This document shows, in pieces, positions 37,554 through 56,581 of a stretch of 64,000 nucleotides of DNA. The first letter of the stretch is position 1; every line of letters begins with the position of its first letter. The notes beneath the pieces were generated by a model that was not told the origin of the DNA, did no database searches, and saw only the letters and a program-made list of their open reading frames with translations. This DNA comes from Thalassobaculaceae bacterium. Lineage in GTDB: Bacteria > Pseudomonadota > Alphaproteobacteria > Thalassobaculales > Thalassobaculaceae. The stretch covers positions 726,616 to 790,615 of the forward strand of contig OZ245843.1 in assembly GCA_965228875.1 (NCBI GenBank), given 5' to 3'. A program made the position numbers and the translations under genes.

Positions 37554-38381
37554 ATGAGCGGCGCTATTTCCGTGCATCACGGCGATTTCGGCCGTGCGGC
37601 TCTGTATGAGCTGGACCGGCCGATCATTACGCATGCCCATCGGGAAGGCCATCTGATCTTCCACATCGACGGGTGCCACGGCAACGTCATCGTCGGCGAC
37701 CGCCGGTATGCGGCCGATCGCAACCAAGCCGTCGCGGTTTCGCCATGGGAGCCACACAGCTTCGAGCCGTCGATACCGGGTGAGGCCTGCCTGTGCCTCG
37801 TACTCTACATCAAGCCGATGTGGTTCCTCGAGGCCAGCCAGTCGGCGGAGTTCGCGTTGAGCTTCGGGCGGTCGACGGTGGAAATGACCGCGAGCGTCCG
37901 ACGCTGGGCGACCCGGTTGACGTCGCTCCTTCTGGACAACCAGGCCTCGGTGCGCTTCGACGGGTTCCTGTTCGAAACCACGCGGCTCTGTTTCGACGAG
38001 TCATGGTCCGGGCTGGACACCAGCCCGTTCCTGCGCAGCCGCAGTGTCCGCTTCAACGATTATCGGGTCCGACGCGCCCTCCGTCTGATGCAGGAGGCGT
38101 TCTCGGAGGATGTGGAGATCGACCATCTGGCGCGGGATGTCGGCCTGTCGCGACCGCATTTTTACAAGCTCTTCAAGATGCAGATGGGCATTCCGCCCAA
38201 CATCTTCCTCAACACCCTACGCACCGAGCAGGCGATCGACGACCTGATGGGGACCCGGAAGTCGGTGACCGATATCGGTTTCGATCTCGGCTTCTCCTCG
38301 CAGGCGAGCTTCACCCGGTTCTTCGCCTCCCATGTCGGAATTCCGCCGACGGAATACCGTCGCGTCGCCCACTTCGCCTGA
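37554..38381 (+). CDS. AraC family transcriptional regulator
   Basis: Cupin HAHREGH; LSRPHFYKLFK...IGFDLGFSSQASFTRFF..GIPPTEYR. Confidence 0.95.
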   Translation: MSGAISVHHGDFGRAALYELDRPIITHAHREGHLIFHIDGCHGNVIVGDRRYAADRNQAVAVSPWEPHSFEPSIPGEACLCLVLYIKPMWFLEASQSAEFALSFGRSTVEMTASVRRWATRLTSLLLDNQASVRFDGFLFETTRLCFDESWSGLDTSPFLRSRSVRFNDYRVRRALRLMQEAFSEDVEIDHLARDVGLSRPHFYKLFKMQMGIPPNIFLNTLRTEQAIDDLMGTRKSVTDIGFDLGFSSQASFTRFFASHVGIPPTEYRRVAHFA

Positions 38382-38615
38382 CGTCGGCGCCCGAGTGTTT
38401 TGGCGATGGCGGGCCAACGCAGAAGACTGCGAGGTACGCCCGATCTGCCACTGATCCGTACCCTCGTTCGAGACGACCGGCCCGCAGAGGTCGGCGAGGG
38501 AGGATGCTGACACCATGCGCCGACTGCCGGGTACACGTGTGGCCGGGCCAAGGGCCGAAGGCTGGGAGCCCCCGGTGGCCGGGACGACTCCACGGTCTGC
38601 GGGGAGTGGGGTGTG

Positions 38616-39629
38616 ATGCGCGCGTTCGCCAGCCGCCATCCGGTCTGGTCGGTCGTCGTCGTCATCGTGGCGGCGGTGCTGCTCTGGCTGATTTTCGCCG
38701 TCTGGCCTAAGGGTCTGGTCGAACTGATCGGGCGCAAGAAGATCTTCCTGAACGCCCTGTTCAACGGCATCACCCTCGGCGGGCTCTACTTCCTGGTCGC
38801 GAGCGGCTTCACCCTGATCTTCGGGCTCATGCGGAACGTCAACCTGGCGCATGGCTCGCTGTACCTGCTGGGCGGCTATGTCGGCTACGTCTTCGCCGAG
38901 TGGACCGGGTACTGGTTGTTGGCCTTCCCGGCGGCGTTCCTGGTCGTCGGTTTCTTCGGCATCCTGCTGCAGCTCTTCGTGTTCCGCCGCATGGAGGGGC
39001 AGGACCTGCGCCAGACGCTGGTGACGATCGGCATCTCCATCGTGATGGCCGACCTGATGCTGTGGATCTGGGGCGGCGACTTCTACAACATCGGCGCGCC
39101 GAGCTGGCTCAGCGGGCCGATGGAGACGTTCCTCGTGACCGGCGTAAAGCGGTCGTCCGGCGATCTCATCTTTCTGAAATATCCGATGGTCCGGATCGTG
39201 ATCTTCGCGGCCTCCGTGGTGGTCGGCGTCGGCATGTGGCTCCTCCTGACGCGCACCCGGGTCGGCATGCTCATCCGCGCCGGGGTCGACGACCGTGAGA
39301 TGCTGTCGGCCACCGGCGCGCGTATCCAGCTGGTCTTTCTCGGCGTCTTCGCCTTTGGCGCCGGGCTGGCCGGTGTGGCCGGCGTGGTCGGCGGAACGTT
39401 CCAGTCGGTGGCGCCGGGCGAGGACATCCGCTTCCTGTTGGCGTCCCTGGTGGTGGTGATCGTCGGCGGCATGGGGTCGATCCCCGGTGCTGCGGTCGGC
39501 GCCCTGCTGATCGGCATGGCCGAGCAGTTCGGGTCCGTCTACTTCCCGACCTACGCGGTGGTCCTGACCTTCCTGATCATGGTGCTCGTCCTGGCGTTCA
39601 AGCCCCAGGGCCTGATGGGGAGGGCGTGA
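38616..39629 (+). CDS. LivH-like ABC permease
   Basis: GFTLIFGLMRNVNLAHG, VVIVGGMGSIPGA, KPQGLMG. Confidence 0.93.
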   Translation: MRAFASRHPVWSVVVVIVAAVLLWLIFAVWPKGLVELIGRKKIFLNALFNGITLGGLYFLVASGFTLIFGLMRNVNLAHGSLYLLGGYVGYVFAEWTGYWLLAFPAAFLVVGFFGILLQLFVFRRMEGQDLRQTLVTIGISIVMADLMLWIWGGDFYNIGAPSWLSGPMETFLVTGVKRSSGDLIFLKYPMVRIVIFAASVVVGVGMWLLLTRTRVGMLIRAGVDDREMLSATGARIQLVFLGVFAFGAGLAGVAGVVGGTFQSVAPGEDIRFLLASLVVVIVGGMGSIPGAAVGALLIGMAEQFGSVYFPTYAVVLTFLIMVLVLAFKPQGLMGRA

Positions 39630-40696
39630 TGGCGGTCTCCGGCGTCACCGGCGGATCGGGCTCCAGGCCGGTTCAGGCCTCGTTCTGGTGGGATCAGGCC
39701 TCGCCGGTCTACCTGGTGGTCGCTGCCGTCCTGCTGCTCATGCCGGCCTTCGCCAGCGATTTCGTCATCTACCAGCTCATGGGCTGGACCTTCATCCTCG
39801 GCATCATCGCCCTCAGCCTGACGTTCCTGGCGGGCTACGGCGGTATGGTCAGCCTGGTGCAGATGTCGGTCGCCGGCATGGCCGGGTACATGGTGGCGAT
39901 CTTCGGCGACAGCGCCATCGCCACCATCAGCCAGGGATGGCCCTGGTACGTGTCGATCCCGCTGGCGCTGATCGTCGCCGTCATCTTCGGCACCCTGGCG
40001 GGCTGGCTCGCGGTCCGCACCGAGGGCATCTACACGATCATGATCACGCTCGCGATCGCGGCGGCGTTCTTCTACTTCACCCGCCAGAACTACGTGATCT
40101 TCAACGGCTTCTCCGGATTCAACGGCGTCCTGCCGCCGCAGCTCTTCGGGGTCGACTGGCGCGGGCCCTCCGCCTTCTACTATCTGACCCTGTTCTGGGC
40201 GACCGTCAGCTACTTCGCGGTCCTGTACATCTCGCGGGCGCCCTTCGGTCTGGCGCTGCAGGGGGTGCGCGACAACCCGCGCCGGATGGCCGCGCTCGGC
40301 TTCAACGTCACGGCGCATCGGGTCGCGGCCTATGCCTTCGCGGCCCTGCTCGCCGCGGTCGGCGGCATTCTGCTGACCTGGCAGTCGGCCCAGATCTCGC
40401 CGGGTACCGCCGGTATCGGGCCGGTGATCGATGTCCTCGTGATCGCCGTGATCGGCGGTCTGCGACATCCGATCGGGCCCTTCATCGGCGCCCTGATCTA
40501 TGTGCTGCTGAAGACCTTCGCGCTCGACGCGCTGGTCGCACTCGGCCTCGGCGGCGAGCGGTTCCAACTGCTGATCGGGGTCGGTTTCCTGGCGATCGTC
40601 TTCTATTCCCCCGACGGGGTGCTCGGGCTCTGGGAACGGCTGAAGGCGTCCCGCGCCCGCGATCCGCTGCGCCAGCGGCAGGGAGGGGCGGAATGA
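39629..40696 (+). CDS. LivM-like ABC permease
   Basis: GYGGMVSL, GIYTIMITLA, GVRDNPRRMAALG, PDGVLG. Confidence 0.93.
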   Translation: MAVSGVTGGSGSRPVQASFWWDQASPVYLVVAAVLLLMPAFASDFVIYQLMGWTFILGIIALSLTFLAGYGGMVSLVQMSVAGMAGYMVAIFGDSAIATISQGWPWYVSIPLALIVAVIFGTLAGWLAVRTEGIYTIMITLAIAAAFFYFTRQNYVIFNGFSGFNGVLPPQLFGVDWRGPSAFYYLTLFWATVSYFAVLYISRAPFGLALQGVRDNPRRMAALGFNVTAHRVAAYAFAALLAAVGGILLTWQSAQISPGTAGIGPVIDVLVIAVIGGLRHPIGPFIGALIYVLLKTFALDALVALGLGGERFQLLIGVGFLAIVFYSPDGVLGLWERLKASRARDPLRQRQGGAE

Positions 40697-41496
40697 GACC
40701 CGCCGTACCCGCCTCTGCCTCGGTTTCCGAACGGCTCTCGGCCACCGGCACCGCCAACGCCCTGGAACTGCGGGGGGTGTCCAAGCTGTTCGGCGCGCTG
40801 GCCGCGCTCGAGGACATCAACCTGACGGTTCGGCCGGGCGAGCGGCGCGCCGTCCTCGGCTCCAACGGCGCCGGCAAGACCACCCTGTTCAACTGCGTGA
40901 CCGGCGACTTCCCGGCGACCACCGGGACGATCCGCTTCTTCGGCGAGGACATCTCCGCCTTTCCGGCCCACGAGCGCATCCGCCGCGGGCTGCGCCGGAC
41001 CTACCAGATCTCGCAGCTCTTCGAAGGGCTGAGCGTGGTCGACAACGTCTATCTGGCCTGCCGGGGCGTGTCCCGCGGCCGCTTCTCGTTCCTGCGGCCG
41101 CGGCGGGACGACGCGCTCATGGCGAGTGCCGACAACCTGGTGCGCGTGGTGCACCTGGAGGAGGCGCGGGATCTGAGGGTCTCCACCTTGTCCCACGGTC
41201 AGCAGCGCCAGCTGGAGATCGCCATGGCGCTTGCCGGCGCGCCGCGCTTCATCCTGTTCGACGAACCGGCCGCCGGCCTCAGCCCGACCGAACGCCGCGA
41301 TCTGGTGGAGATCCTCACCGGCCTGCCCGGACATATGGGGTTCATCGTGATCGAGCACGACATGGACGTCGCGCTGCGTGTCGCGGAGAGCGTGACGATG
41401 ATGCACAACGGCCGGGTCTTCAAGGAGGGGCGGCCGGCCGAGATCGAGGACGATCCCGAGGTTCAGGCGCTCTACCTGGGGGGTGGCGATGCCTGA
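40693..41496 (+). CDS. LivG-like ABC ATP-binding protein
   Basis: [34 protein letters not shown]. Confidence 0.94.
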
Positions 41497-43663
41497 CGCC
41501 ACGACCCCCGTTCTCTCGGTCCACGACCTCAACGTCTATTACGGTCAGAGCCACGCGCTGCAGGGGATCGACCTCGAGCTCGGCGCCGGCGTGCTTTCGG
41601 TCGTCGGGCGCAACGGCATGGGCAAGACGACGCTCTGCAACGCCATCATGGGGCTGACCCCGGTCTCCTCCGGCACCATTTCCGTCGCCGGCCGGAACGT
41701 CGTCGGCGCGAGCCCGGCGGAGATCGCGAACCTGGGCGTCGGGTACGTGCCCCAAGGCCGCCGCCTGTGGCGATCGCTGAGCGTCGACGAACATCTGCGG
41801 CTGGTGGCGCGGCGCGGCGGCGCCTGGACGCCGGAGCGGATCTACGCGACCTTCCCGCGGCTCGCCGAGCGGCGCGGCAACGGCGGCGGCCAGCTCTCCG
41901 GCGGCGAGCAGCAGATGCTGGCGATCTCGCGCGCCCTGCTGCTGAACCCGCGTCTGCTGGTGATGGACGAGCCGACAGAAGGCTTGGCGCCGGTCATCGT
42001 CCAGCAGGTCGAGGAGATGCTGCTCCGTCTCGGCCGCGAGGGCGACATCAGCGTCCTGGTGATCGAGCAGAACATCGGTGTCGCCTGCGCGGTGTCGGAA
42101 CGGGTCGCGATCATGGTGAACGGGCGGATCGCCCGGGTCATGGATGCGGGGGTCCTGGCGGCGGACCGTGACCTGCAGCAGGCGCTGCTTGGCGTCGGGC
42201 GCCATGCCCATGACGAGACGCCGGACAGCCCGGCGCCGCGCGCGTCGCACGAGGCCGCCCCCCGAACCGGAACCTCGGTCACCCGGATCTACCTCTCGAA
42301 CCCGAAGGTGCCCACACGCTGGAGCGCGCCGGTGCCGGTGCGGGTGATCGAGGGCGCGGCCCGAACCACGACGGCGCCGGCCGCTGCATCGGCCGACCGG
42401 GTCGTGACGCCGCTTCGGGCCCGGCGCTCTGGCGGTGGCGGCGCGATCCTGGTGGCCGGCACGCTCGACACCAAGGGGCCGGAACTCCGGCTAATGCGCG
42501 ACGTCCTCAAGGCACGGGGGCTGACGGTGCGGATGGTCGACCTGTCGACGTCGGGCAAGCCCTCCGGCGCCGACGTTCCGCCGCACGCGGTCGCCGCGTT
42601 CCATCCGCGCGGCGTCGCCGGGGTGATAACGGGCGACCGTGGCACCGCCGTCGCCGGAATGACACTGGCGTTCGAGCGCTGGATCCGGGCGCAGGAGGAT
42701 GTGGCCGGCGTCGTATCGGCGGGCGGTTCCGGCGGCACCGCGCTGGTGGCGCCGGCAATGCGCTCGCTGCCGGTCGGCGTGCCGAAGGTGATCGTCTCAA
42801 CCGTCGCCAGCGGCAATGTCGGCCAGTATATCGGCCCGTCCGACATTCTGATGCTGCATTCGGTCGCCGACGTGCAGGGCATCAACTCGATCACCCGTCA
42901 GGTGCTTACCAACGGCGCCGCCGCGCTGGCCGGCATGGTCGAGGCGCGCCGGGCGGAGCAGGCGCGGGGCGACGACAAGCCCGCCGTCGGCCTGACCATG
43001 TTCGGCGTCACCACTCCCTGCGTGCAGCAGGTGGTCGCGCGCCTGCGGGACGATTTCGACTGCCTCGTGTTCCACGCCACCGGAACCGGCGGGCGGGCGA
43101 TGGAGAAGCTGATGGACAGCGGCATGCTGTCTGCGATCCTCGACCTGACCACCACCGAGGTCTGCGACATGGTCGCCGGCGGGGTGTTCGCCGCCGACGA
43201 GGACCGCTTCGGCGCGTCGATCCGTTCCGGCCTGCCGTATATCGGAGCGTGCGGCGCCCTCGACATGGTGAACTTCAACGCGCCGGAGACGGTGCCCGAG
43301 CGGTATCGCGGCCGCCGGCTCTACGAGCACAACCCGCAGATCACCCTGATGCGGACCTCGGTCGAGGAGAACGACCGGATGGGGCGCTGGATCGGCGAGC
43401 GGCTGAACCGCATGACCGGCCCGGTCCGCTTCTTCCTGCCGGAGGGCGGCGTGTCGGCCCTGGACGCGCCGGGAGCGCCGTTCTGGGATCCGGAGGCCGA
43501 CCGCGCGCTCTTCGCCGCCCTGGAGGCGACGGTGCGCCAGACGTCCGCGCGCCAGCTGATCCGGGTTCCGCACAACATCAACGCCGTCGAGTTCAGCGAT
43601 CTCGTCGTGCAGACGTTCCGGAGCCTGCACGCCAGCCGGCTCCATCTGGCCAGCGGGGGATAA
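41489..43663 (+). CDS. LivF-like ABC ATPase fused to Tm-1-like (UPF0261) domain
   Basis: [25 protein letters not shown]; then [41 protein letters not shown]. Confidence 0.9.
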
Positions 43664-43666
43664 GCC

Positions 43667-44494
43667 ATGTTCGAGCGAAGCGAGTTGCTGACCAGGTACC
43701 GCGCCATGATCGCGCGCGGCGAGCCGATCATCGGCGGCGGCGCCGGCACCGGCCTCAGCGCGAAGTGCGAGGAGGCGGGCGGGATCGACCTGATCGTGAT
43801 CTACAATTCAGGCCGTTACCGCATGGCCGGACGCGGGTCTCTCGCCGGCCTGATGCCCTATGGCGACGCGAATGCCGTCGTAATGGAGATGGCCGCCGAG
43901 GTGCTGCCCGTCGTCAGGCGCACGCCGGTTCTGGCGGGCGTCTGCGCCTCCGATCCGTTCCGCCTGATGGACAGGTTCCTCGACCAGATCAGGGCGGCCG
44001 GGTTCTCCGGCGTCCAGAACTTTCCCACCGTCGGCCTGATCGACGGGACGTTCCGGGCCAATCTGGAGGAGACCGGCATGTCCTACAGCCTGGAGGTGGA
44101 CATGGTCCGCATGGCCCGCGCCAAGGACATGCTGACCACGCCCTATGTCTTCTGCGCCGAGGACGCCCGGGCGATGGCCGAGGCCGGCGCGGACATCATC
44201 GTCTGCCACCTGGGCCTGACGACCGGCGGCAGCATCGGGGCGGAGACCGCACTCACCCTGGAGCAATGCCCGGCACTGGTCGACGCCTGGGCGGCGGCAG
44301 CCCTCGAGGTCAATCCGGAAGCCATCGTGCTGGTCCATGGCGGCCCGGTGGCGATGCCCGAGGACGCGGCCTACGTGCTCGCCAACACCACGCACTGTCA
44401 CGGTTTCTACGGCGCCTCCTCGATGGAGCGGCTGCCGACGGAAGTCGCGCTGACGGAGCAAACCAGGAAATTCAAAGCGATCGGTCGCGGCTGA
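43667..44494 (+). CDS. TIM-barrel signal transduction / PEP-hydrolase family protein (Tm-1 C-terminal-like)
   Basis: [62 protein letters not shown]. Confidence 0.9.
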
Positions 44495-44517
44495 CGCGAC
44501 GGCGAAGGAGGCCTCTC

Positions 44518-47500
44518 ATGACTGGGCAACTGATCGGACAACTGATCCTCTGGCTGATCCTGGCGGTCATCGTCATCTTCGTCATCTACTGGGTGATGCA
44601 CTGGCTGTACCGGCGCTCGACCAAGGAGATCGCCTTCGTGCGGACCGGTTTCCTCGGCGAGAAGGTGGTGATCGACGGCGGCGCGTTCGTCTGGCCGATC
44701 ATCCACGACATCACGCCGGTCAACATGAACTCGCTTCAGCTCGCGGTGACCCGCGAGAAGGACGAGGCGCTGATCACCAAGGACCGGATGCGGATCGACG
44801 TCGACGCCGAGTTCTACGTGCGGGTCAAGCAGACCGGCGATGCCGTCAGCCTGGCCGCCTCGACCCTGGGCCGCCGCACCCTGGAGCCCGAGCGTATCCA
44901 CGCGCTGCTCTCCGGAAAGTTCATCTCGGCCCTGCGCACGGTCGCCTCCGAGATGACGATCGAGGAACTGCACGAGAACCGCAACGACTACGTCGCCCGG
45001 GTGCTGAAGGCGGCGCAGGGCGGTCTCGACAAGAACGGCCTGGAACTCGAGAGCGTCGCCATCACCGACATCGACCAGACCGAGATCGAATACTTCAACC
45101 CGTCCAACCGGTTCGATGCCGAGGGCCTGACCACGGTCATCGAGGCCATCGAGGCGCGGCGCAAGCTGCGCAACGACATCGAACAGGACGCGATGATCAA
45201 GATCCGCACGCGCAACCTGGAGGCAGAGAAGCAGGCGCTGGACATCGAGAAGGAGAGCGAGGAGGCCCGGCTCGACCAGGAGCGCGAGATCGAGTTCCGT
45301 CGCGCCCAGCAGCGCGCCGCGCTCGCCCGCGAACGCTCCGAGCGGGAGAAAGAGGCCGAGCAGGCCACGCTCCTCAGCCGCGAGGCCATCGAGACCGCGC
45401 GGATCGCCAACGAACGTCAGATCTCCGAGGCGCGTATCGCCTCCGAACGCGAGGTCCGCCAACGCGAGATCGAACGCCAGCGGGTGATCGACGAGGCCGA
45501 GATCACGACCCTGGAGGCGGTCGAGAAGGCGCGCATCGCCCAGGAGAAGATCCTGACCGAGGAGCGGATCCGCACCCGGCGGGAGACCGAGTCCGCGGAC
45601 ATCGCCGCCCGGGAGGAGATCGAGACCGCCCGCATCGCCCAGGAACTGAAGATCACCGAGGCGCGGATCTCATCCGACCGGCTCACCAGGGAGCGCGAGA
45701 TCGCCCGCAACCTGGCGATCCAGGAGGCGGAGATCGCCGCCCGCGAAGGCGCCGAGAAGCTGCGCATCCTGCAGGAGAAGGCCGTGAGCTCGGCGCGCAT
45801 CAGCTCCGACCAGGAGGTGCGCGCGCTGGAGATCCAGCAGCGTCAGGCCATCGACGAGGCACAGATCGCCAGCGAGAAGGCGACCGAAGCGGCCCGCATC
45901 GCCCGCGAGAAGGCGCTGGCGGCGGAGCGTATCGCCTCCGAGCAGAATACCCGCGCCCTGGAAATCGCGCGACAGCGGACGCTGGATCAGGCGCAGATCG
46001 AGGCGGCGGAGCAGACCTCCAAGGACCGCATCGCCCAGGAGGAGCGTGTCCGCGCCCTGGAGATCGAGCGCAACCGGGCCATCGACGAGGCCGAGATCGC
46101 TTCGCGCGAGGCTGTGGAGAAGGCGCGGATCGCCCAGGACCGTCAGCTCTCCCTGGAACGCATCCAGGCGCAGGAGGAGACCCAGGAGCGCGACGTGGCG
46201 CGCGCACGGGCCGTGGAGGCGGCGGAGATCGCCAAGGCCGAAGCCGTCGAGGCGGCCCGCTTCGCCAAGGAGAAGGCGGTCGCTGCCGAGCGTATCGCCT
46301 ACGAGCAGGACCTGCGCGAGCGCGAGATCGCCCGCAACCGCGCGGTCGACAGGGCCAATATCGAGGCCCAGGAGGAGGTCAACGCCGCCCGCATCGCCGA
46401 GCAGGCGAAGACCCGGGCGGCCGAGATCGCGCGCGACGCCGACCTGCGCAACCGCGAGATCGAGCGCAACGAGGCCGTCGAGGCGGCCGAGATCGCGTCC
46501 CGCCGCTCGGTCGAGCAGAAGCGGATCGCCCAGGAGGCGGAGACGACCGCCGAGAAGATCGCCCGCGACCAGCGCATCCGCGACCTGGAGATCGCCCGCA
46601 ACAAGGCCAACGACGAGGCGCAGATCGCCGCCGAACAGGCGACCGAGGCGGCGCGCGTCGCGCGGAACAAGCGGGTCGAGGCCGAGAAAATCCTGGCCGA
46701 GCAGGAACTGGACGCCCGCAAGCTCGAGCGGCGCAAGGTGCTGGAGCATCTGGAGGTGGAACGCTTGCAGGTCCTGCGCGAGGCCGAAATCTCGAGCCAG
46801 GAGCTGATCGAGCGCGCCCGGATCGCGTCCGAGAAGGGGCTCGACGACGTTCGGATCGAGCACCAGACCGAGCGTCGCCGTCTGGAGATCGAGCGCGAGA
46901 AGGTGGTCGAGGCCGCGCAGATGGAGAAGGCCATCGAACTCTACAAGAAGTCCCTGGATCAGAGCGCGGCCGCGACCGAGGCCGAACTGGCGCGGGTCCG
47001 GGCGACCGAGGCGGCGGAGAAGGTGGAGACCGCCCGCGAGACGGAGATCGCCGCCCGGCGCAAGAGCATCGACATCACCCTGGCGGAGAAGGCGGCGGAG
47101 GAGAAGCGGATCGCGGCCGAGGCCGAACGCATCCGCGCCGGCGTGGAAGCCGAGGCCCAGCGCCTCATCAACGAGGCCGAGAACGTCCTCACCGACGGCT
47201 CCCGCCGCTCGCTGTTCAAGCGCAAGATGCTGGAGCATGTCGAAGGCATCGTTTCCGCCTCCGTCAAGCCGCTCGAGAAGATCAACGAGATCAAGATCAT
47301 GCAGCTCGGTGGCAGCGGCACGACCGGCCTCGGTTGGGCGAATGGCGACGGGCCGAACGGGGAGGGTGGACCCGGCGGCGGCGACTTCGGGGGGCGTGGC
47401 ACCAGTCCGACGGACGAGGTCATCAACTCCGCGCTGCGCTATCGGGTGCAGGCCCCGATGATCGACAGCCTGCTGCACGATATCGGCATCGACGGCTCCA

Positions 47501-47721
47501 ACATCGCCAGCCAGGGCGGGCTGATCCGCGAGGCTTCCGACCTGACGCGCACGGCCGGCGAGCTGAAGCGCATGGGGGCGGGCGACGCCAAGGCCAAGTC
47601 CCAGGGGGGATCAGGGGGCGGCTCTGGCGGTGGTTCTGGAGGCGGATCCGGTCAGAGCTCGGGCGGCGGGGCGGCGAAACGCGGGCGTCGCGGGGCGACC
47701 AAGACCGAGGGGACGAGCTAG
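44518..47721 (+). CDS. Flotillin/SPFH protein with very long coiled coil (1067 aa)
   Basis: N-terminal TM, AFVRTGFLGEKVV.DGG, ALITKDRMR.DV..EFYVRV, NGLELESVAIT, FDAEGLT; C-terminal VKPLEKI..IKI and SALRYR.QAP. Confidence 0.9.
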   Translation: MTGQLIGQLILWLILAVIVIFVIYWVMHWLYRRSTKEIAFVRTGFLGEKVVIDGGAFVWPIIHDITPVNMNSLQLAVTREKDEALITKDRMRIDVDAEFYVRVKQTGDAVSLAASTLGRRTLEPERIHALLSGKFISALRTVASEMTIEELHENRNDYVARVLKAAQGGLDKNGLELESVAITDIDQTEIEYFNPSNRFDAEGLTTVIEAIEARRKLRNDIEQDAMIKIRTRNLEAEKQALDIEKESEEARLDQEREIEFRRAQQRAALARERSEREKEAEQATLLSREAIETARIANERQISEARIASEREVRQREIERQRVIDEAEITTLEAVEKARIAQEKILTEERIRTRRETESADIAAREEIETARIAQELKITEARISSDRLTREREIARNLAIQEAEIAAREGAEKLRILQEKAVSSARISSDQEVRALEIQQRQAIDEAQIASEKATEAARIAREKALAAERIASEQNTRALEIARQRTLDQAQIEAAEQTSKDRIAQEERVRALEIERNRAIDEAEIASREAVEKARIAQDRQLSLERIQAQEETQERDVARARAVEAAEIAKAEAVEAARFAKEKAVAAERIAYEQDLREREIARNRAVDRANIEAQEEVNAARIAEQAKTRAAEIARDADLRNREIERNEAVEAAEIASRRSVEQKRIAQEAETTAEKIARDQRIRDLEIARNKANDEAQIAAEQATEAARVARNKRVEAEKILAEQELDARKLERRKVLEHLEVERLQVLREAEISSQELIERARIASEKGLDDVRIEHQTERRRLEIEREKVVEAAQMEKAIELYKKSLDQSAAATEAELARVRATEAAEKVETARETEIAARRKSIDITLAEKAAEEKRIAAEAERIRAGVEAEAQRLINEAENVLTDGSRRSLFKRKMLEHVEGIVSASVKPLEKINEIKIMQLGGSGTTGLGWANGDGPNGEGGPGGGDFGGRGTSPTDEVINSALRYRVQAPMIDSLLHDIGIDGSNIASQGGLIREASDLTRTAGELKRMGAGDAKAKSQGGSGGGSGGGSGGGSGQSSGGGAAKRGRRGATKTEGTS
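45300..47160 (+). repeat. Intragenic 11-aa (hendecad) / 44-aa tandem protein repeats
   Basis: e.g. DQEVRALEIQQ-RQAIDEAQIAS-EKATEAARIAR-EKALAAERIAS; Ile recurs every 11 residues; boundaries approximate. Confidence 0.8.
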
Positions 47722-48159
47722 ATGGCGCGTGTCTACGTCTCGTCGGTGATCGACGCCCCCGCCGCGCGGGTCTGGGAGCGGGTCAGGGACTTCAACGGCC
47801 TTCCGCGCTGGCACCCGCGGATCCGCGACAGCCGGATCGAGGACGCCCTGCCGTCGGACAAGGTCGGCTGCATCCGCAACTTCAACCTGCAGAACGGGGA
47901 CAACATCCGCGAGCAGCTGCTGGGGTTGAGCGACTACGACCTGTTCTGCACCTACGCGATCCTGGAGAGCCCGATGCCGCTGACCGACTACGTCGCGACG
48001 CTGCGCCTGACGCCCGTGACCGAGGGCGACCGCTGCTTCATCGAATGGTCGGCCGAGTTCTCCTGCGATCCCGCCGACGAGGACGGCCTGGTCGCCGGGA
48101 TCGGCGGCAACGTGTTTCAGGGCGGGTTCGACGCCCTGAAGCGGCATTTCGGAGGCTGA
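47722..48159 (+). CDS. SRPBCC (START-like) family protein
   Basis: SVIDAPAARVWERVRDFNGLPRWHP, VGCIR. Confidence 0.9.
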   Translation: MARVYVSSVIDAPAARVWERVRDFNGLPRWHPRIRDSRIEDALPSDKVGCIRNFNLQNGDNIREQLLGLSDYDLFCTYAILESPMPLTDYVATLRLTPVTEGDRCFIEWSAEFSCDPADEDGLVAGIGGNVFQGGFDALKRHFGG

Positions 48160-48162
48160 GCG

Positions 48163-48621
48163 ATGCCGAGGGTCAGGCGCAGCACGGTCCTGGACGCGCC
48201 GGTGGAGGCGGTCTGGGACGTCCTGCGCGACTTCAACGGCCACGACCGCTGGCATCCCGCCGTTGCCGAGAGCGCAGTCGAGCGCGGCCGGTCCTCCGAC
48301 CAGGTCGGTTGCGTGCGGCGGTTCCGGCTGCAGGACGGCGCGGAACTGCGCGAACAGCTGCTGACCCTGTCCGATCTGGAACAGGCATTCTCCTACTGCC
48401 TGCTCGACACGCCGGTCCCGCTCTTCAACTACGTCGCCCATGTCAGGCTGTTCCCCGTGACCGACGGCGACCGGACGTTCTGGGAATGGGAGAGCCGGTT
48501 CGACACGCCGGCGGGCCGCGATGAGGAACTGGCGGCGATGGTGGGCAACGACATCTATGGCGCCGGGTTCGATGCGATCCGCGCGCATATGGGGCTGGAG
48601 GCGAGCGGTGCTGAGGGTTGA
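48163..48621 (+). CDS. SRPBCC family protein, paralog of the preceding gene
   Basis: VLDAPVEAVWDVLRDFNGHDRWHP, VGCVR, REQLL.LSD shared with neighbour. Confidence 0.9.
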   Translation: MPRVRRSTVLDAPVEAVWDVLRDFNGHDRWHPAVAESAVERGRSSDQVGCVRRFRLQDGAELREQLLTLSDLEQAFSYCLLDTPVPLFNYVAHVRLFPVTDGDRTFWEWESRFDTPAGRDEELAAMVGNDIYGAGFDAIRAHMGLEASGAEG

Positions 48622-49411
48622 AACCTGTCGGACGATCCAGGAGGCGGCCGGAGCGATGGGTACGCGCTCGCGCTTTCTCGGCGGTGGAACGCTGGTGATG
48701 CGCGCCGTTAACGACGGCGACCAGGGTTTCGACCACATCGTGCGGACAACCGATCCGGCCCTGAGGGAGGTCCGCGTCGACGGATCGCGGATCCGGATCG
48801 GCGCCGGGTGCACGATGGCCGATGTCATTGCCTCCCGCGATCTCGGGTTTCTTGCGCCGGCGGCGCGGCTCGTGGGCGGGCCGGCGGTGCGCAACATGGC
48901 GACGGTCGGCGGCAACCTGTTCGCCCCGCATCCCTATGGCGATCTGACGGCGGCGCTGCTGGCGCTCGACGGCGTGGCGCATATGGCCGACGGCCGCGAG
49001 CAGGGGATCGACGCCCTGCTCGGTGCCCGCGAGCGCCCCTCCGGACTGGTGGCGGCGGTGTCGGTGGCGCGACCGCAGGACGGGGAGTTCCGGTTCCGCA
49101 AGGTCAGCCGGGTGAAGCCGAAGGGGGTGTCCGTGATGTCGATCGCGGCGCGGCTGCCGCGCTCGGCAGGGCGGGTCTCCGGGGCCCGGGTCGCCTTCGG
49201 GGCGATGGGGCCGACACCGCTGCGCGCGCCGGCGGTGGAGCGGGCGCTGGAGGGGGCGGCGCTGGATGCGTCCGGCATCGCTGCGGCGCTGGCAGCGGTC
49301 GGGGGCGCCCTGTCGCCGGCGGACGATGCGATCGCGTCGGCCTGGTATCGCCGGGAGGTTGCGGCGGTCCATCTCGGCCGATTGCTGCTCGACGACGGGA
49401 GGGGGCGATGA
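48608..49411 (+). CDS. Molybdenum hydroxylase FAD-binding subunit
   Basis: LGGGTL, VRNMATVGGNL, ASAWYRR. Confidence 0.9.
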   Translation: MLRVETCRTIQEAAGAMGTRSRFLGGGTLVMRAVNDGDQGFDHIVRTTDPALREVRVDGSRIRIGAGCTMADVIASRDLGFLAPAARLVGGPAVRNMATVGGNLFAPHPYGDLTAALLALDGVAHMADGREQGIDALLGARERPSGLVAAVSVARPQDGEFRFRKVSRVKPKGVSVMSIAARLPRSAGRVSGARVAFGAMGPTPLRAPAVERALEGAALDASGIAAALAAVGGALSPADDAIASAWYRREVAAVHLGRLLLDDGRGR

Positions 49412-49890
49412 CCAAGGTTCCGGTGCGGTTCACCCTGAACGGGGCCGAGACCGGCGTGTTCGCCGATCCGGGCGCCAACCTGCTGGATGTGCTGCGGCGG
49501 GGCGCCGGGGACCTCTCGCCCAAATACGGCTGCGGCCAGGGCACCTGCGGCGCGTGCACGGTGCTGATCGACGGGGACGCGCATCTGTCCTGTCTCACGC
49601 TGGCGGAGTCCGCCGAGGGGCGTCGCATCGACACCACCGGCGGCCTGCGTCTCGGCGCGGATCTGCACCCGCTGCAGCGCCGGTTCATGGAAGGGTTCGC
49701 CGCCCAGTGCGGCTACTGCACACCGGGCATGCTGATGGCGGCCAAGGCCCTGCTCGACAGGGAGCCGAACCCGTCGCGCGAGCAGGTGATCGAGGCGATC
49801 TCCGGTAATCTGTGCCGGTGTACCGGATACGAGCCCATTGTCGACGCGATCCTGGCCGCCGCCGGCGATCTGCGGGGGAGGGTGGCCTGA
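49408..49890 (+). CDS. Molybdenum hydroxylase 2x[2Fe-2S] subunit
   Basis: GCGQGTCGACTV, QCGYCTPG, GNLCRCTGY. Confidence 0.95.
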   Translation: MTKVPVRFTLNGAETGVFADPGANLLDVLRRGAGDLSPKYGCGQGTCGACTVLIDGDAHLSCLTLAESAEGRRIDTTGGLRLGADLHPLQRRFMEGFAAQCGYCTPGMLMAAKALLDREPNPSREQVIEAISGNLCRCTGYEPIVDAILAAAGDLRGRVA

Positions 49891-51776
49891 TGTCTTCCGT
49901 GGAGTTCCGCAAGGACCTGTTCGCCAACGAACGGCGCGACGACCTGAACGAGATCGGCAAGCCGACGATCCGCCAGGACATCCTGGGCCACGTCACCGGC
50001 GCGACGAAGTACTACGACGACCACCTGTTCGACGGCCTGCTGCACATGCGCTGCGTGCGGTCGCCGCATCACCATGCCCGCATCCGGCATGTCGACACCT
50101 CGGCGGCGGAACGGATGGAGGGGGTGGTGCGCATCGTCCGCCCGACCGACGTGCCGCGCAACCTCAACACCCTGCTGTCGCTGATCGGTTTCGGCCGCGA
50201 CGACGAGGAACTGCTGGCGACGGCGAAGGTCGCCTATGCGGGCGAACCGGTGGTGGCCGTGATCGCGACCTCGGACCGTCTGGCGCGCGACGCGGCCGCG
50301 GCGGTGCGCGTCGACTGGGAGGTGCTGCCCCACGTGCTGGACGTCGAGGAGGCGCTCAAGCCCGACGCGCCTGTGGTCAACGACGTCTACCCGAACAACA
50401 CCTTCGACTATCACGACCGTTACGATCACCAGAAGCTGCGGTTCGGCGATGTCGAGGCCGCGTTCGCCCGGGCCGACCACATCGTCGAGGGGACCTACCA
50501 GATGTCCCCGATCGAGCAGGCGCCGATGGAGACCTGCGGCGCCATCGCCGCTCCGGAGACCAACGACCGCTTCATCTGTCACACCGCGACCCAGGCCCTG
50601 TTCTTCTCGCTCGGCACCACGGCGAAGCTGCTCGACATGGCGTCGTCGCGGCTGCACTTCGTTGGCGGCACGGTGGGCGGCGGCTTCGGCGGCAAGGTCG
50701 ACAGTCTGGTGGAGCCGATGGCGGTGCTCGGCGCGATCCTGACCGGCCGGCCGGTCAAGTTCATGTGGGACCGCCCGGAGGAGATGCAGGTCGGCGCGCC
50801 GCGCGGCGCCGAGCGCTGGCGGCTGAAGGACGGGGTGATGGCCGATGGCCGCATCGTCGCCCGCAGCCTCACCGGCTTCTTCGACGCCGGCGCCTACACC
50901 CGCCTGTCCTCCTACGCGATCATCAAGGCGACCGGTCACCTGCCGGGGCCGTACACGATCCCGAATGTCGCCTCCAACGTGTTCTGCGTGTTCACCAACC
51001 GCACCCCGGCGACCGCCATGCGTGGCTTCGGCATCACCGGCGTCGACTTCGCCATCGAGTGCCACATGGACAAGGTCGCCGAGACCATCGGCCTGAACCC
51101 GATCGACCTGCGGATCCTGAATGCCTACCGGGACGGCGACATGAAGGCGCACCGGCGCGTCGCCAAGAACACCGCGCTGATCGAGTGCTGCCAGGTGGCG
51201 GCGCAGAAGGCCGGGGTGACCCTGCGACCGGACTCGATGCAGGCCTCCAGCCTGGTCGGCGGCGGCGTCGGCGAGCGGGCGCAGATCCCGGAGACGGTGA
51301 CAGACCAGATGTCACGGATCGGCGAGCGCCGGCGGTCCGAACTGCCGACCGATCCGCTCGTGGGCGCGCACGACAAGGGCAGGGTGGCGGCCGGGGTGAT
51401 GGGGACGCCGATCGCCGCCGCCGAGCCGCAACGCGAGGACATGCGGATCGAGGCGTCCAGGGTCGGTCACGCGGTATCCGGTCCGAGCCCGGCTCCGGCA
51501 TCCCCCGCGCCCACTCCTGCGATACCGCCAGCCGCCGCCCCCGTGACCCCGCGGGCGGTGCCAACTGCAGCGCCCGCGGCTTCCATCTCCCCGGTTCCTC
51601 CGCAACCCGCACCCCCGCAGGGTACACCTGCGCAGGCTGCGCCTCCGCAACCTGCACCTCCGCAACCTGCTGCGACGCCGCCGGCGGCAGCGCCCTACCA
51701 ACCCGAGAAGCCGTTCCAGCAGGGTGTGCGCCGGCCCGGCGTCTCGCGGTTCCTGTCCGGCACGCGGAGGCGCTGA
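49890..51776 (+). CDS. Molybdopterin-binding subunit, N-terminal half, with Pro/Ala-rich tail
   Basis: VTGATKYYDD, RSPHHHARI, VGGGFGGK, DAGAY, AMRGFG. Confidence 0.92.
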   Translation: MSSVEFRKDLFANERRDDLNEIGKPTIRQDILGHVTGATKYYDDHLFDGLLHMRCVRSPHHHARIRHVDTSAAERMEGVVRIVRPTDVPRNLNTLLSLIGFGRDDEELLATAKVAYAGEPVVAVIATSDRLARDAAAAVRVDWEVLPHVLDVEEALKPDAPVVNDVYPNNTFDYHDRYDHQKLRFGDVEAAFARADHIVEGTYQMSPIEQAPMETCGAIAAPETNDRFICHTATQALFFSLGTTAKLLDMASSRLHFVGGTVGGGFGGKVDSLVEPMAVLGAILTGRPVKFMWDRPEEMQVGAPRGAERWRLKDGVMADGRIVARSLTGFFDAGAYTRLSSYAIIKATGHLPGPYTIPNVASNVFCVFTNRTPATAMRGFGITGVDFAIECHMDKVAETIGLNPIDLRILNAYRDGDMKAHRRVAKNTALIECCQVAAQKAGVTLRPDSMQASSLVGGGVGERAQIPETVTDQMSRIGERRRSELPTDPLVGAHDKGRVAAGVMGTPIAAAEPQREDMRIEASRVGHAVSGPSPAPASPAPTPAIPPAAAPVTPRAVPTAAPAASISPVPPQPAPPQGTPAQAAPPQPAPPQPAATPPAAAPYQPEKPFQQGVRRPGVSRFLSGTRRR

Positions 51777-51777
51777 G

Positions 51778-52800
51778 ATGGCCGTACACACCGGGCGCGG
51801 CTTCGCCTGCATCAACTATCCCATCGGCATGAACCTGGGCGGCGACCCGAGCCAGGCCCTGGTGCATTCGACCCCGGACGGCAAGTTCATGGTCACGCTG
51901 AGCGCCATCGATCTCGGTCAGGGCATGAAGTCTGTCACCCGCCAGATCGCCGCCGAGGCGCTCGGCGTGCCGATCGCCGACGTCTATGTCGACACCGCGG
52001 ACAGCGATACCGGGGCCCACGACATGGGCAGCTTCGCCTCGCGCGGCACCCACAGGGTCGGCAATGCGGTGATCCGCGCGGCGACCGAGGCGCGCAACCA
52101 GATGCTTGAGGCGGCGGCCGAGGAGCTTGAGGTCGATCCGGGCGACCTGGAGACAGACGGGGCGGGCAACATCCATGTGCGCGGTGCGCCGGGACGATCG
52201 ATCACGGTCGCCGAAACCGCCATCGCCGCCCAGTTCAAGCAGGGACGGACCTTGTCCGGTCGCGGCATCTTCCTGATCCCGCCGGGCGAGGCCGATCCCG
52301 AGACTGGCGAGATGACGCCGGTGACCTGCTTCGCCCACGCCGCCCTCGTGGTGTCGGTCGAGGTCGACGACGAGACCGGTGAGGTCGCCGTCACCAAGAT
52401 CGATTCCGCCTACGAGGTGGGCCGCGCGTTGAACCCGAAACTGGTGGAACAGCAGCTCATCGGTGGCGCCTGGATGGGGGTCAGCCACGCGCTGTTCGAG
52501 ACCACGGAGCCCTATTACCCGGACCGCTCCCATGGGCCGGTCGACTTCAACGGCTACCTCATGCCGGGGCCGGGTCAGATCGTCCCCCACGACATCGCCA
52601 TACTGGAGCGTCCGGCGGAGGATGCGCCGTTCGGCGGCAAGGGGCCGGGGGAGATGTGCGCCAATCCTGTCCTGCCGGCGATCGCCAACGCGGTCTACGA
52701 CGCGGTCGGCGTGCGCTGCGACAGCCTGCCGATCACGCCGGAAAAAGTGCTCCGCGGTATCCGCGCCAACGGTGGCGCCCGGCGTCGGGGCGCGCTCTGA
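51778..52800 (+). CDS. Molybdopterin-binding subunit, C-terminal half
   Basis: DLGQG, GSFASRGT, VEVDDETGEV, LNP..VEQQL.GG, GKGPGE, AIANAVYDAVG, LPITPEKVL. Confidence 0.92.
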   Translation: MAVHTGRGFACINYPIGMNLGGDPSQALVHSTPDGKFMVTLSAIDLGQGMKSVTRQIAAEALGVPIADVYVDTADSDTGAHDMGSFASRGTHRVGNAVIRAATEARNQMLEAAAEELEVDPGDLETDGAGNIHVRGAPGRSITVAETAIAAQFKQGRTLSGRGIFLIPPGEADPETGEMTPVTCFAHAALVVSVEVDDETGEVAVTKIDSAYEVGRALNPKLVEQQLIGGAWMGVSHALFETTEPYYPDRSHGPVDFNGYLMPGPGQIVPHDIAILERPAEDAPFGGKGPGEMCANPVLPAIANAVYDAVGVRCDSLPITPEKVLRGIRANGGARRRGAL

Positions 52801-53681: not shown

Positions 53682-54778
53682 CGTTACCCGACGCCGCCAA
53701 ACCGTTCGTCGCGTTCCCGTCGGTGCTGAGAGCGCACGGCTTCGCCGTCGCGCCGGATCAGACCGTCGGCTTTCTGCAGGCAATCGGTCTCCTGGGGCCG
53801 CGCGACATGACCGATATCCGCCGCGCGGCGGTCGCCATGCTGGCGGTGCCGCGCGAGCGGGAGGATGAGTTCGACGCCTTGTTCCGCGCCTTCTTCCTCG
53901 GCCAGAGTCTGCCGGCGGCGCTGCCGGATCGCGAGGAGGAGGAGGTCGAGGCGCATGAGCCGGAAGGCGGCGTGTCGGAGGTCGAGGAGGGCGAGGACAT
54001 CTCCGACACCGGCGCGGAGGCGACCGCCGCGGAGCGTCTGTCCGCCCGTGCGCCGGGTCCGGGGACGGATATGGAGGCGCTCGACGGCTTCTGCCGGGCG
54101 GTGCCGCGCAGGCTTCCGAGGCGGCGCAGCTACCGGCTGGCGCCGAGCCGTCGGCGCGGCGTGCTCGATCTGCGACGTACCCTGCGCGAGGCGGCTCGGC
54201 GGGACGGCGAGGCGACGGTCCTGAAGACCCGTCGGCGCCGCGAGCGCCAGCGGCGGGTGGTTCTTCTGATCGACATCTCCGGTTCGATGAAGGATCGCAC
54301 CGACGATCGTCTTCGCTTTGCCCACGCGCTGGTCCGGGCCGGCGAACGGGTGGAGGTGTTCACACTCGGCACGCGCCTGACCCGCATCTCCGGAGAACTG
54401 CGGGTGCGCGATCCGGACCGCGCCATGGAGCGGGTCGGCCGGCTGGTAGCGGATTTCGACGGCGGCACGCGCATCGGCGAGGCGCTGCAGGCCTTTCTCG
54501 CCGTTCCCCGATATGCCGGATTCGCCCGTGGCGCCGTCGTCCTGGTGCTGTCGGATGGTCTGGAACGGGGCGGGCCTGAGGCGATGGTGGAGGCGATCAG
54601 GCGACTGTCGCGCCTGGCCTGGCGCCTGGACTGGCTGAGCCCGCTCGCCGACGACCCGGCCTACCGGCCGCAGACGTCGGCGTTGTCGGCGGTGCTGCCC
54701 TGGCTCGACGCGCTTGGCGACGGCGCCAGCCTCGCGGCGGTCTGCCGCCACGTTCTGACTCTTGGGAGACAGCGATGA
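53678..54778 (+). CDS. VWA-domain CoxE-like protein
   Basis: DLRRTLR, MIDAS DISGSM, GGTRIG, LSDGLERG. Confidence 0.92.
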   Translation: MTLPDAAKPFVAFPSVLRAHGFAVAPDQTVGFLQAIGLLGPRDMTDIRRAAVAMLAVPREREDEFDALFRAFFLGQSLPAALPDREEEEVEAHEPEGGVSEVEEGEDISDTGAEATAAERLSARAPGPGTDMEALDGFCRAVPRRLPRRRSYRLAPSRRRGVLDLRRTLREAARRDGEATVLKTRRRRERQRRVVLLIDISGSMKDRTDDRLRFAHALVRAGERVEVFTLGTRLTRISGELRVRDPDRAMERVGRLVADFDGGTRIGEALQAFLAVPRYAGFARGAVVLVLSDGLERGGPEAMVEAIRRLSRLAWRLDWLSPLADDPAYRPQTSALSAVLPWLDALGDGASLAAVCRHVLTLGRQR

Positions 54779-55650
54779 TCGATGCGCACCATCACATCTG
54801 GCGCCAGCGGGACCTGCCCTGGCTGCAGGGGGAGGAACAGCCGCGGATTTTCGGCTCCTACGCCTCGATCATGCGCGACTACCTGATCGACGAGTTCCGC
54901 GCCGACCTGGCGGGCACCGGCATCACCCGATCGGTCTACGTCCAGGCGAACTGGCCGCCGGCCGCCTATGTCGACGAGGCGGCCTGGGTCCAGTCGGTCG
55001 CCGACGCCACGGGCTGGCCCAACGCCATCGTCGGGTATGCCGATTTCACCGTGCCGGACGTGCGCCCCCAACTCGAGGCGCTGGCTGCCTTTCCCCGGAT
55101 GCGTGGTATCCGCCAGCAGTTCCATTGGCACGAAAAGCCTCTCTATCGCTTCGCGTCGCGTCCGGATCTAGCCACGGATCCGACGGTGCAGGCCAATGTG
55201 CGCCGGCTGGCGGAGTTCGGCTGGGTGTTCGATCTTCAGGTCTTCGCCGGGCAGATGGCGGGGGCGGCCGAACTCGCGCGGGCCTGTCCGGATGTCACCT
55301 TCGTCCTGCAGCACGCCGGGATGCTCGAGGACACCTCCGACGCCGGCCGGGCGGCGTGGCGTGCCGGAATGGAGGCGCTCGCCGCCTGCCCGAACGTGAA
55401 CACCAAGCTGTCGGCTTTCGGCACGTTCATCCACCGCAACGATCCTGCCTTCATCGCCGAGATGGTGGAGGCGACCGTCGCCCTGTTCGGGGCGGAGCGC
55501 TGCCTGTTCGGCTCCAACTTCCCGATCGAGAAGATATGGACGTCATACGGCGCGCTGTTCGCGGCGTTCCGGGACGCGACGGACGGGCTGCCGGCGGGCG
55601 ATCAGGCGGCGATCTTCGGACGCACGGCGGAACGGATCTACCGGATCTGA
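54775..55650 (+). CDS. Amidohydrolase_2 family lactonase-like hydrolase
   Basis: IDAHHHIW, SVYVQA, LQHAGM, KLS, FGSNFP. Confidence 0.88.
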   Translation: MIDAHHHIWRQRDLPWLQGEEQPRIFGSYASIMRDYLIDEFRADLAGTGITRSVYVQANWPPAAYVDEAAWVQSVADATGWPNAIVGYADFTVPDVRPQLEALAAFPRMRGIRQQFHWHEKPLYRFASRPDLATDPTVQANVRRLAEFGWVFDLQVFAGQMAGAAELARACPDVTFVLQHAGMLEDTSDAGRAAWRAGMEALAACPNVNTKLSAFGTFIHRNDPAFIAEMVEATVALFGAERCLFGSNFPIEKIWTSYGALFAAFRDATDGLPAGDQAAIFGRTAERIYRI

Positions 55651-55702
55651 GCAGAACACGGGGCTGCACCCCGGACCCACGACCTACGGCAGGGAGAGAG
55701 AC

Positions 55703-56551: not shown

Positions 56552-56581
56552 GCCGCCCGTCGCGCGCTGGAGGATTCAACC

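Follow-up and report, generated by a model that had tools for sequence, protein, structure and literature searches.

A flotillin-family protein with a long array of 11-residue repeats in a conserved gene cluster of Alphaproteobacteria

Cages built from SPFH proteins have been solved only recently, and what determines their size is an open point. According to the available text of PMC11260169, the wall of the human flotillin-1/flotillin-2 cage (9bq2, 9l3g) consists of 44 parallel helices of 186 amino acids, which are rich in Ala and Glu, contain no heptads and form a single-layer right-handed barrel. The height of the cage is given as 22 nm and its width as 32 to 19 nm; the coiled-coil length is described there as varying between SPFH proteins and as related to complex size. 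The present study deals with a flotillin-family protein of 1067 amino acids encoded in a stretch of 64,000 nucleotides (nt) from a Thalassobaculaceae bacterium (assembly GCA_965228875.1, contig OZ245843.1, positions 726,616 to 790,615 of the forward strand), referred to here as the window. The gene, at window positions 44518-47721 (+), lies among genes with predicted roles in uptake and oxidation, and most of the long helix of its product is a strict array of 11-residue repeats, the number of which differs between relatives in whole units. We propose that the protein forms a length-tunable flotillin barrel serving the co-encoded pathway, a reading to which we assign a probability of about 55%. 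A first-pass annotation of the same DNA had started from the cage-building of SPFH relatives with long helical walls, which agrees with the single-layer helical wall of the human cage.

The protein resembles the human cage chains in its SPFH domain, its long Ala- and Glu-rich helix without heptads, and its C-terminal strand and cap domain, but it differs from them in several respects. The helix comprises about 690 residues, 550 of them in the strict 11-residue array, as opposed to 186 in the human wall; at most a homo-oligomer would be expected; an N-terminal transmembrane helix is present where the human chains have lipidation and a hairpin; and the protein carries an additional C-terminal motif and a Gly/Ser tail. 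The domain order is also that of YqiK from E. coli and FloT/YuaG from B. subtilis, bacterial flotillins of the SPFH2 family, and the motif SALRYRxQAP is shared with ordinary YqiK-type proteins of related genomes. However, ordinary forms of this type lack a periodic array, and SPFH2 genes usually occur in one operon together with an NfeD2 gene (yqiJ or yuaF, for example), as described in the accessible part of PMC2636767, whereas the gene described here has no such partner. The HflK/C assembly around FtsH is an SPFH cage enclosing a defined membrane client (7wi3, 9cz2; PMC13220708, available text) and would be the model for a cage fencing a co-encoded importer. It differs in that it faces the periplasm (PMC2636767), is a hetero-oligomer and has a short wall. 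The genome has its own HflK/HflC elsewhere: of its three other SPFH genes, two were read by adjacency as an HflK/HflC pair and the third is stomatin-like. The major vault protein likewise combines an SPFH-like shoulder domain with a subsequent long cap helix in a large closed cytoplasmic particle, but this eukaryotic protein lacks a membrane anchor, and repeat domains instead of a single helix make up its body. We found no paper on a flotillin subfamily with a repeat array, including flotillin or SPFH proteins with a hendecad or 11-residue coiled coil, in a search that did not extend to most subscription journals or to supplements; a review on START domains names neither flotillin nor SPFH.

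Family membership and domain architecture

The protein is a flotillin-family SPFH protein. The SPFH/Band 7 domain (PF01145; residues 41-197, 44638-45108) scores 68 bits against a cut-off of 23.6 (E 1.4e-18), and the flotillin C-terminal domain (Flot, PF15975; residues 856-991, 47083-47490) scores 106 bits against a cut-off of 27 (E 1.6e-30) and covers profile positions 2-124 of 124. Within the latter, the stretch KPLEKINEIKIMQLGG was aligned by HMMER to a flotillin-1 stretch ending in ...KITLVSSGSG. Together with the N-terminal membrane helix, these matches bear out the designation as a flotillin in the first-pass annotation. With the NCBIfam equivalog FloT (NF058507), the score is only 35.4 bits against a cut-off of 700, and the protein is therefore regarded as a member of the wider flotillin family and not as a FloT orthologue. 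The closest solved chains by sequence are flotillin-1 of the two cage structures 9bq2 and 9l3g, with a match confined to the SPFH domain (9bq2_B, E 3.1e-6). Foldseek with the AlphaFold2 (AF2) model placed the flotillin cage chains on top, followed by prohibitin, stomatin, erlin, HflK/C and the major vault protein.

The N-terminal membrane helix (residues 5-29, 44530-44604) is hydrophobic and is followed by the basic stretch YRRSTKE (RR..K); in the AF2 model it is part of a helix at residues 3-34. Based on the positive-inside rule, the bulk of the protein is predicted to be cytoplasmic, anchored by this single helix. The membrane helix is highly conserved, with six invariant and ten nearly invariant positions among the first 30 residues in 44 orthologues, which exceeds what a plain anchor would need. 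Near the C-terminus lies the conserved motif SPTDEV..SALRYRVQAP..D (approximately residues 963-1012, 47404-47553), which is common to ordinary YqiK-type flotillins; [AS][LM]RYR is present in 13 of 14 generic flotillins. SALRYR as a docking site for partners from the cluster was ruled out, since it also occurs in the ordinary YqiK-type proteins. Residues 1020-1067 (47575-47718) form a Gly/Ser-rich tail with a basic end that is disordered in the AF2 model.

The open reading frame (ORF) comprises 1067 codons. Its ATG begins 23 nt after the TGA stop of the upstream gene (44492-44494), and the Shine-Dalgarno sequence GAAGGAGG (44504-44511, +), 6 nt before the ATG at 44518, represents a strong ribosome-binding site. 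The TAG stop (47719-47721) abuts the ATG of the following gene at 47722 with a gap of 0 nt; this junction and the Gly/Ser tail were both correctly described beforehand.

The 11-residue array and its length in relatives

The helical region as delimited by the AF2 helices comprises residues 198-890 (45109-47187). It contains no proline between residues 196 and 917, prolines 195 and 918 bracketing 722 proline-free residues, and only five glycines occur between residues 198 and 895; proline is absent from the region in 79 of 80 orthologues. Of 689 residues, Ala accounts for 135, Glu for 133, Arg for 101 and Ile for 66. Fifty in-phase hendecads of four row types, arranged in units of 44 and 33 residues, occupy residues 278-827 (45349-46998), with hydrophobic positions at 285-824, and a looser phase can be followed by eye from about residue 234. 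The strict array expected from the first-pass annotation exists, but it extends over 550 residues and not over more than 600.

BLOSUM autocorrelation of residues 221-860, compared with 50 shuffles, gave a peak at each multiple of 11 up to lag 198 (z 9.6-16.6), with lag 44 the strongest (z 16.6), followed by 121, 77, 165, 88, 132 and 33, and with z values of at most 5.3 at other lags. The strong lags of 44, 33, 77, 121 and 165 indicate 44-residue units, some of which lack one 11-mer, and this is the grouping that had been recognised before. Manual assignment of 47 rows distinguished the row types A (12 rows), B (10), C (12) and D (12), with one row unclear, and the consensuses EAvEkARIAQE, KalsaERIase, qetRaREIARn and rAiDEAEIAar.

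Bulky residues are found only at positions 3 and 8 of the row. Position 8 is I/V/L/M/F in all 47 rows (residues 289-805) and Ile in 41 of them, position 3 is a bulky hydrophobic residue (Val/Ile/Leu) in 35 of 47, Ala is dominant at positions 6 and 9, and charges predominate at positions 1, 4, 7 and 11. The Fourier power of hydrophobicity amounts to 8.9 at period 5.5 and 8.2 at its harmonic 2.75, as opposed to 1.1 at 3.67. The array was initially called a hendecad coiled coil; this holds for the 11-residue period, but the single a-d-e-h core of a classical hendecad, with its period of 3.67, was not found. On a calculated 11/3 helix, positions 3 and 8 are separated by about 131 degrees; one of the arcs between them is rich in Ala and the other is charged. 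This pattern points to a two-seam wall helix that would touch one neighbour on each side and not to a classical hendecad rope; two seams at period 5.5 suggest a side-by-side helical wall as in the solved flotillin cage.

The ordinary YqiK-type flotillins of related genomes have 545-748 amino acids and proline-free helices of 208-398 residues, with a power at period 5.5 of at most 0.58. An exact 11-residue period may be needed only once the wall is long, because the drift of a seam adds up with length, which would explain why the period is strict here and absent from the ordinary forms. The array does not result from recent DNA slippage: pairs of 132-nt units reach at most 71% identity, and Tandem Repeats Finder reported only short, weak arrays. 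The low identity among the units indicates that the repeats are old.

A search with the repeats alone among 1.84 billion representatives returned 91 matches, 16 of which were scanned against Pfam. Two of these contained flotillin domains, and P0028 had been recognised as a flotillin in the protein search. The long repeat-only matches scanned, comprising phage tape-measure, mucin-like, chitin-binding, helicase and STAND proteins with 15-25% identity to the array as well as proteins without a Pfam match, were not taken as homologues. PDB matches of residues 453-717 to the "Rab family protein" chains 5il7, 8r4b and 6hlu (E 3e-5 to 2.5e-4) were set aside as likely due to repeats or composition. 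In phage tape-measure proteins, helix length rules assembly size; they resemble the protein described here in being long and helical, but their matches to the array are weak and compositional, they are not homologous at the identity given, and their assembly is a different one.

To follow length among relatives, the helix was measured between two conserved motifs that flank it. The protein search gave 2878 matches among 8000 scored, and the 120 matches listed range from 606 to 1131 amino acids with a mode at 685-689. Among the matches listed, 49 of the 58 measurable homologues depart from the length of the query by whole 11-residue units, from 19 to 41 of them, while seven fall into a class offset by 8 and two are offset by 6, one of them from a frameshifted assembly. 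A scan of one genome per species yielded 125 stretches encoding relatives, of which 80 were kept, with 71 complete ORFs (844-1173 amino acids) and 69 measurable ones. The anchor-to-anchor helix spans 509-839 residues, and 43 of the 69 are in the phase of the query, 25 in the offset-by-8 class, and one exception is off by 2. The offset class stems from an insertion or deletion in a separate junction segment and not in the array; two near-identical proteins differ only by a stretch of 14 residues at this place. In 68 of the 69 loci, the length variation is hence quantised in 11-residue steps within two phase classes.

A tree of the first 290 residues with 80 rows places at least 30 changes of helix length, and sister pairs differ by 7, 7 and 16 units. 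The differences include odd numbers of units such as 5, 7, 19, 25 and 29. The longest array, found in four relatives, has 62 in-phase units, so the query is long but not the longest. The variation of repeat number among orthologues in whole 11-residue steps fits the earlier suggestion that size is set by repeat number. Because these loci had been found through the query and are kin, 400 further genomes of the class, sampled evenly, were also analysed. The flotillins found in this even sample have 558, 559, about 565, about 590, 684, 685, 685, 688, 690, 690, about 740, 956, 1125 and about 1150 amino acids, where the longest is a frameshifted form and the four approximate sizes were read from the gap between the flanking genes and not from an ORF; across samples, orthologues range from 558 to 1173 amino acids. 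The forms of 558-690 amino acids that were placed on the tree constitute a separate clade (support 94/81). Several public flotillin entries (P0003, P0006, P0090, L063, L074, L159) are frameshifted and give either truncated ORFs or apparent fusions with the neighbouring PEP-hydrolase-like or SRPBCC gene; they were taken for assembly or calling errors in a repeat-rich gene of high G+C content.

The conserved gene cluster and its putative pathway

The cluster starts with an AraC-type regulator (37554-38381), followed by a LivH/M/G-type ATP-binding cassette (ABC) importer, a fusion of a LivF-type ATPase with UPF0261, a PEP-hydrolase-like gene, the flotillin gene and two SRPBCC genes; behind this pair lie a molybdenum hydroxylase with CoxD/CoxE-like maturation genes and then lactonase-like hydrolases. 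The order is common to the 80 loci kept, most of which were found by similarity to the query, with the PEP-hydrolase-like gene in 79, the ABC-UPF0261 fusion in 79, the SRPBCC pair in 73, the flavin adenine dinucleotide (FAD) subunit in 70, the two halves of the large subunit in 66 and 61, and CoxD and CoxE in 61 each; most missing genes are located at contig ends. In each of the 69 loci measured, -1 to +12 nt separate the flotillin stop from the start of the first SRPBCC gene, and the spacing is between -1 and +1 nt in 53 of these loci. The enzyme operon setting that had been noticed beforehand is therefore conserved and not a chance adjacency, and the cluster with flotillin is found across several orders of Alphaproteobacteria and in a few other Pseudomonadota.

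In the even sample, the PEP-hydrolase-like gene is present in 30 of the 400 genomes, and 29 loci were examined. All 14 flotillin-bearing loci with longer DNA have the same core, UPF0261 - PEP-hydrolase-like - flotillin - SRPBCC - SRPBCC. The ABC-UPF0261 fusion occurs in all six flotillin loci with enough upstream DNA and in none of ten clusters without flotillin. A molybdenum enzyme lies downstream of all four long flotillin forms and of none of the 11 short ones (forms of up to 740 amino acids); in four of the six scanned loci with forms of 684-690 amino acids, an FAA-hydrolase, an alpha/beta hydrolase and an amidohydrolase were found downstream instead, and some of these three genes were seen in the remaining two.

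The LivH, LivM and LivG-type importer genes (38613-41496, +) precede the fusion gene (41483-43663, +), which encodes 726 amino acids with a LivF/UrtE-type ATPase at about residues 10-237 and a complete UPF0261 domain pair with the MarK-type kinase fold at residues 321-717 (NF002673, 600.9 bits against a cut-off of 520). UPF0261 is described in the available text of PMC12624787 as an ATP-dependent kinase of aromatic monomers (MarK), and its fusion to the transporter ATPase suggests that uptake is coupled to phosphorylation. Directly upstream of the flotillin gene lies the PEP-hydrolase-like TIM-barrel gene (PF09370; 43667-44494, +). In three genomes (loci L162 in G110, L164 in G247 and L167 in G079), homologues of this gene with 69-84% identity have no UPF0261, flotillin or SRPBCC gene nearby, which indicates that the TIM barrel is also used in other contexts. 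In four clusters from two genomes (L160, L161, L174 and L175; G188 and G001), an SRPBCC gene directly follows the PEP-hydrolase-like gene, and neither flotillin nor the ABC-kinase fusion is present; they are a natural "minus scaffold" comparison.

The two SRPBCC proteins (47722-48159 and 48163-48621, both +) are paralogous and anchor-less, match Pfam Polyketide_cyc2 and not COXG, and show a mean column identity of 85% and 77% (38 and 40 orthologues) as opposed to 60% for the flotillin. The molybdenum hydroxylase (48521-52800, +, with the longest possible ORF starts) consists of an FAD subunit, a 2Fe-2S subunit and a large subunit that is split into two genes at 49812-51776 and 51778-52800 (+), with TGA at 51774-51776 and ATG at 51778; in most related loci, the two halves overlap by 4 nt or are read in different frames. 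Among solved structures, the large subunit matches best to the large molybdopterin subunit of nicotinate dehydrogenase (3hrd_A, E 2.4e-56), and the enzyme is therefore assigned to the xanthine-oxidase-family hydroxylases and not to carbon monoxide (CO) dehydrogenase. At 54775-57500 (+), three putative lactonase-type hydrolases with Amidohydro_2, metallo-beta-lactamase and SMP-30/gluconolactonase folds follow, which hints at a pathway that passes through a lactone.

According to the accessible part of PMC12202499, the SRPBCC protein CoxG of Mo-CO dehydrogenase takes quinone from the membrane to the soluble xanthine-oxidase-family enzyme, and in the portion consulted of bioRxiv 10.1101/2020.01.08.898148, 3-hydroxypyridine dehydrogenase is described as requiring a separate SRPBCC subunit. 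The similarity to CoxG lies in an SRPBCC carrier beside a xanthine-oxidase-family enzyme that links it to the membrane, and the two SRPBCC genes here are located between a membrane scaffold and such an enzyme. However, CoxG has its own membrane anchor, whereas the SRPBCC proteins of this cluster lack one, differ in their Pfam match as mentioned above and are also present without the molybdenum enzyme. Overall, by analogy, the cluster looks like one by which an aromatic or heterocyclic compound is taken up and oxidatively degraded, and it is tied to the membrane by two of its features, the flotillin and the fusion of transporter and kinase.

A candidate barrel and competing explanations

Taken together with the solved relatives, the anatomy of the array suggests the following assembly. 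The protein, a bacterial flotillin of the YqiK/FloT-type, would have its one N-terminal helix in the inner membrane and the remainder in the cytoplasm, and would most likely form a large homo-oligomeric ring, as solved SPFH proteins do, with the SPFH domains lying on the membrane. The long helices would run parallel and in register side by side, forming a right-handed, single-layer barrel that the C-terminal domains close off, and the wall of this subfamily would have been lengthened approximately threefold by amplification of the 11-residue unit. Each of the two neighbouring helices would be met by one seam, formed on one side by Ile (position 8) and on the other by Val/Ile/Leu (position 3), and the Ala-rich and charged faces would constitute the two wall surfaces. 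The exact period of 11 would keep the seams in register over 550 residues, and gain or loss of whole units would alter the length of the barrel only, which matches the quantised length variation. Such a barrel would probably fence or enclose the ABC importer, together with the kinase-fold domain fused to it, and both SRPBCC carriers; soluble enzymes may be included as well.

The contour of the 693-residue helix (198-890) is about 104 nm at 0.15 nm per residue, and that of the strict array about 82 nm. The span of 90-100 nm proposed in the first-pass annotation would apply if the helices stood upright, but the wall helices of flotillin are strongly tilted. From the published diameters and an assumed helix spacing of about 1 nm, we estimate a tilt of 45 to 65 degrees, and the barrel height could be in the range of 40 to 100 nm.

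Several observations weigh against this proposal. The synteny counts of the 80 loci derive mostly from kin of the query, and in the even sample the flotillin gene is directly downstream of the PEP-hydrolase-like gene in 15 of 29 loci and absent beside it in 14. The existence of sister clusters with kinase-fold, PEP-hydrolase-like and SRPBCC genes but without flotillin implies that the scaffold is accessory to the chemistry. The correlation between a long wall and the molybdenum enzyme was not used as evidence, since one split on the tree counts as one event. An NfeD-family partner has no place beside the flotillin gene, whose neighbours are the PEP-hydrolase-like and SRPBCC genes; the only NfeD match of the genome adjoins the stomatin-like gene, 2.3 Mb from the flotillin. 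Finally, the AF2 monomer is poor, with a predicted local distance difference test (pLDDT) of 61 and a predicted template modelling score of 0.26, too low for a tertiary arrangement to be read from it, and its helix is broken at residues 382-396 and 659-677, two breaks that we do not trust. Speaking neither for nor against binding, a complex prediction with flotillin residues 36-300, flotillin residues 800-1067 and the second SRPBCC protein, and with the first SRPBCC protein as partner, gave a median score of 0.60, compared to 0.69 for a control in which the C-terminal flotillin chain was replaced; the score may stem from either of the kept chains, the N-terminal flotillin part or the second SRPBCC protein.

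The same elongated ring might instead have a generic membrane-microdomain role and be part of the operon for co-regulation only, touching no soluble enzyme and at most corralling the ABC importer. Bacterial flotillins are generally described as microdomain scaffolds in the literature as far as it was accessible, the same enzymes occur in clusters without flotillin, and the unusually conserved membrane helix would fit contacts within the bilayer. This explanation has a real but small chance of being correct, because it accounts neither for a wall that is lengthened only in the operon-bound subfamily nor for the tight junction to the first SRPBCC gene in every locus measured.

Instead of a closed barrel, the array might form a rod of few strands, an open sheet or a filament, and the protein would then act as a cytoskeleton-like tether that holds its C-terminal domain tens of nm off the membrane. 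The helix is long, proline-free and strictly periodic, as such a rod would require, and an open, nautilus-like SPFH assembly is among the solved entries (9cz2). We consider this improbable: the angle between the seams, with an Ala face between them, is unlike the single a-d-e-h core of hendecad ropes, as far as can be judged from the calculated geometry, and the two domains by which relatives close their rings, SPFH and cap, are both preserved.

The AF2 monomer, which splits the helix into segments 198-381, 397-658 and 678-890, could also be taken to indicate that the helix folds back in hairpins, giving a thicker, multi-layer wall of ordinary height in which repeat number would not set the size. 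This is still harder to sustain, as the breaks have a pLDDT below 50 and are located in ordinary in-phase repeats without Gly or Pro, and the odd unit differences between relatives would shift the arms of a hairpin against each other. A single stable alpha-helix of the ER/K-type, a spacer packing against nothing, is hardly credible. The region is rich in Glu and Arg, with enriched opposite charges at i,i+3 and i,i+4 (z 3.0 and 2.7), but charged residues make up only 43% of it and bulky hydrophobic ones 20%, and the Ile/Val/Leu kept at position 8 in every row would be needless in a solvent-exposed helix.

The length-tunable barrel serving the pathway can be extended to a stronger form, which we regard as doubtful: a membrane-rooted closed tube, 20-30 nm wide and 40-100 nm long, evolving in 11-residue steps, would be a metabolic compartment that encloses the cytoplasmic face of the importer, the kinase-fold domain, the SRPBCC carriers and the molybdenum hydroxylase. 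The imported compound would then be processed before reaching the cytoplasm, and an SPFH protein would take the place of a microcompartment or encapsulin shell; in a Pfam scan of 19 ORFs in window positions 34717-56551, no shell family of bacterial microcompartments or encapsulins was found.

Bacterial flotillins have few defined clients, and the conserved gene cluster suggests clients for this one. The natural series of lengths from 558 to 1173 amino acids in whole 11-residue units offers a direct test of whether helix length sets cage size. If the barrel does enclose the enzymes, it would represent a new type of compartment in bacterial cell biology and, for protein engineers, a tube whose length could be dialled.

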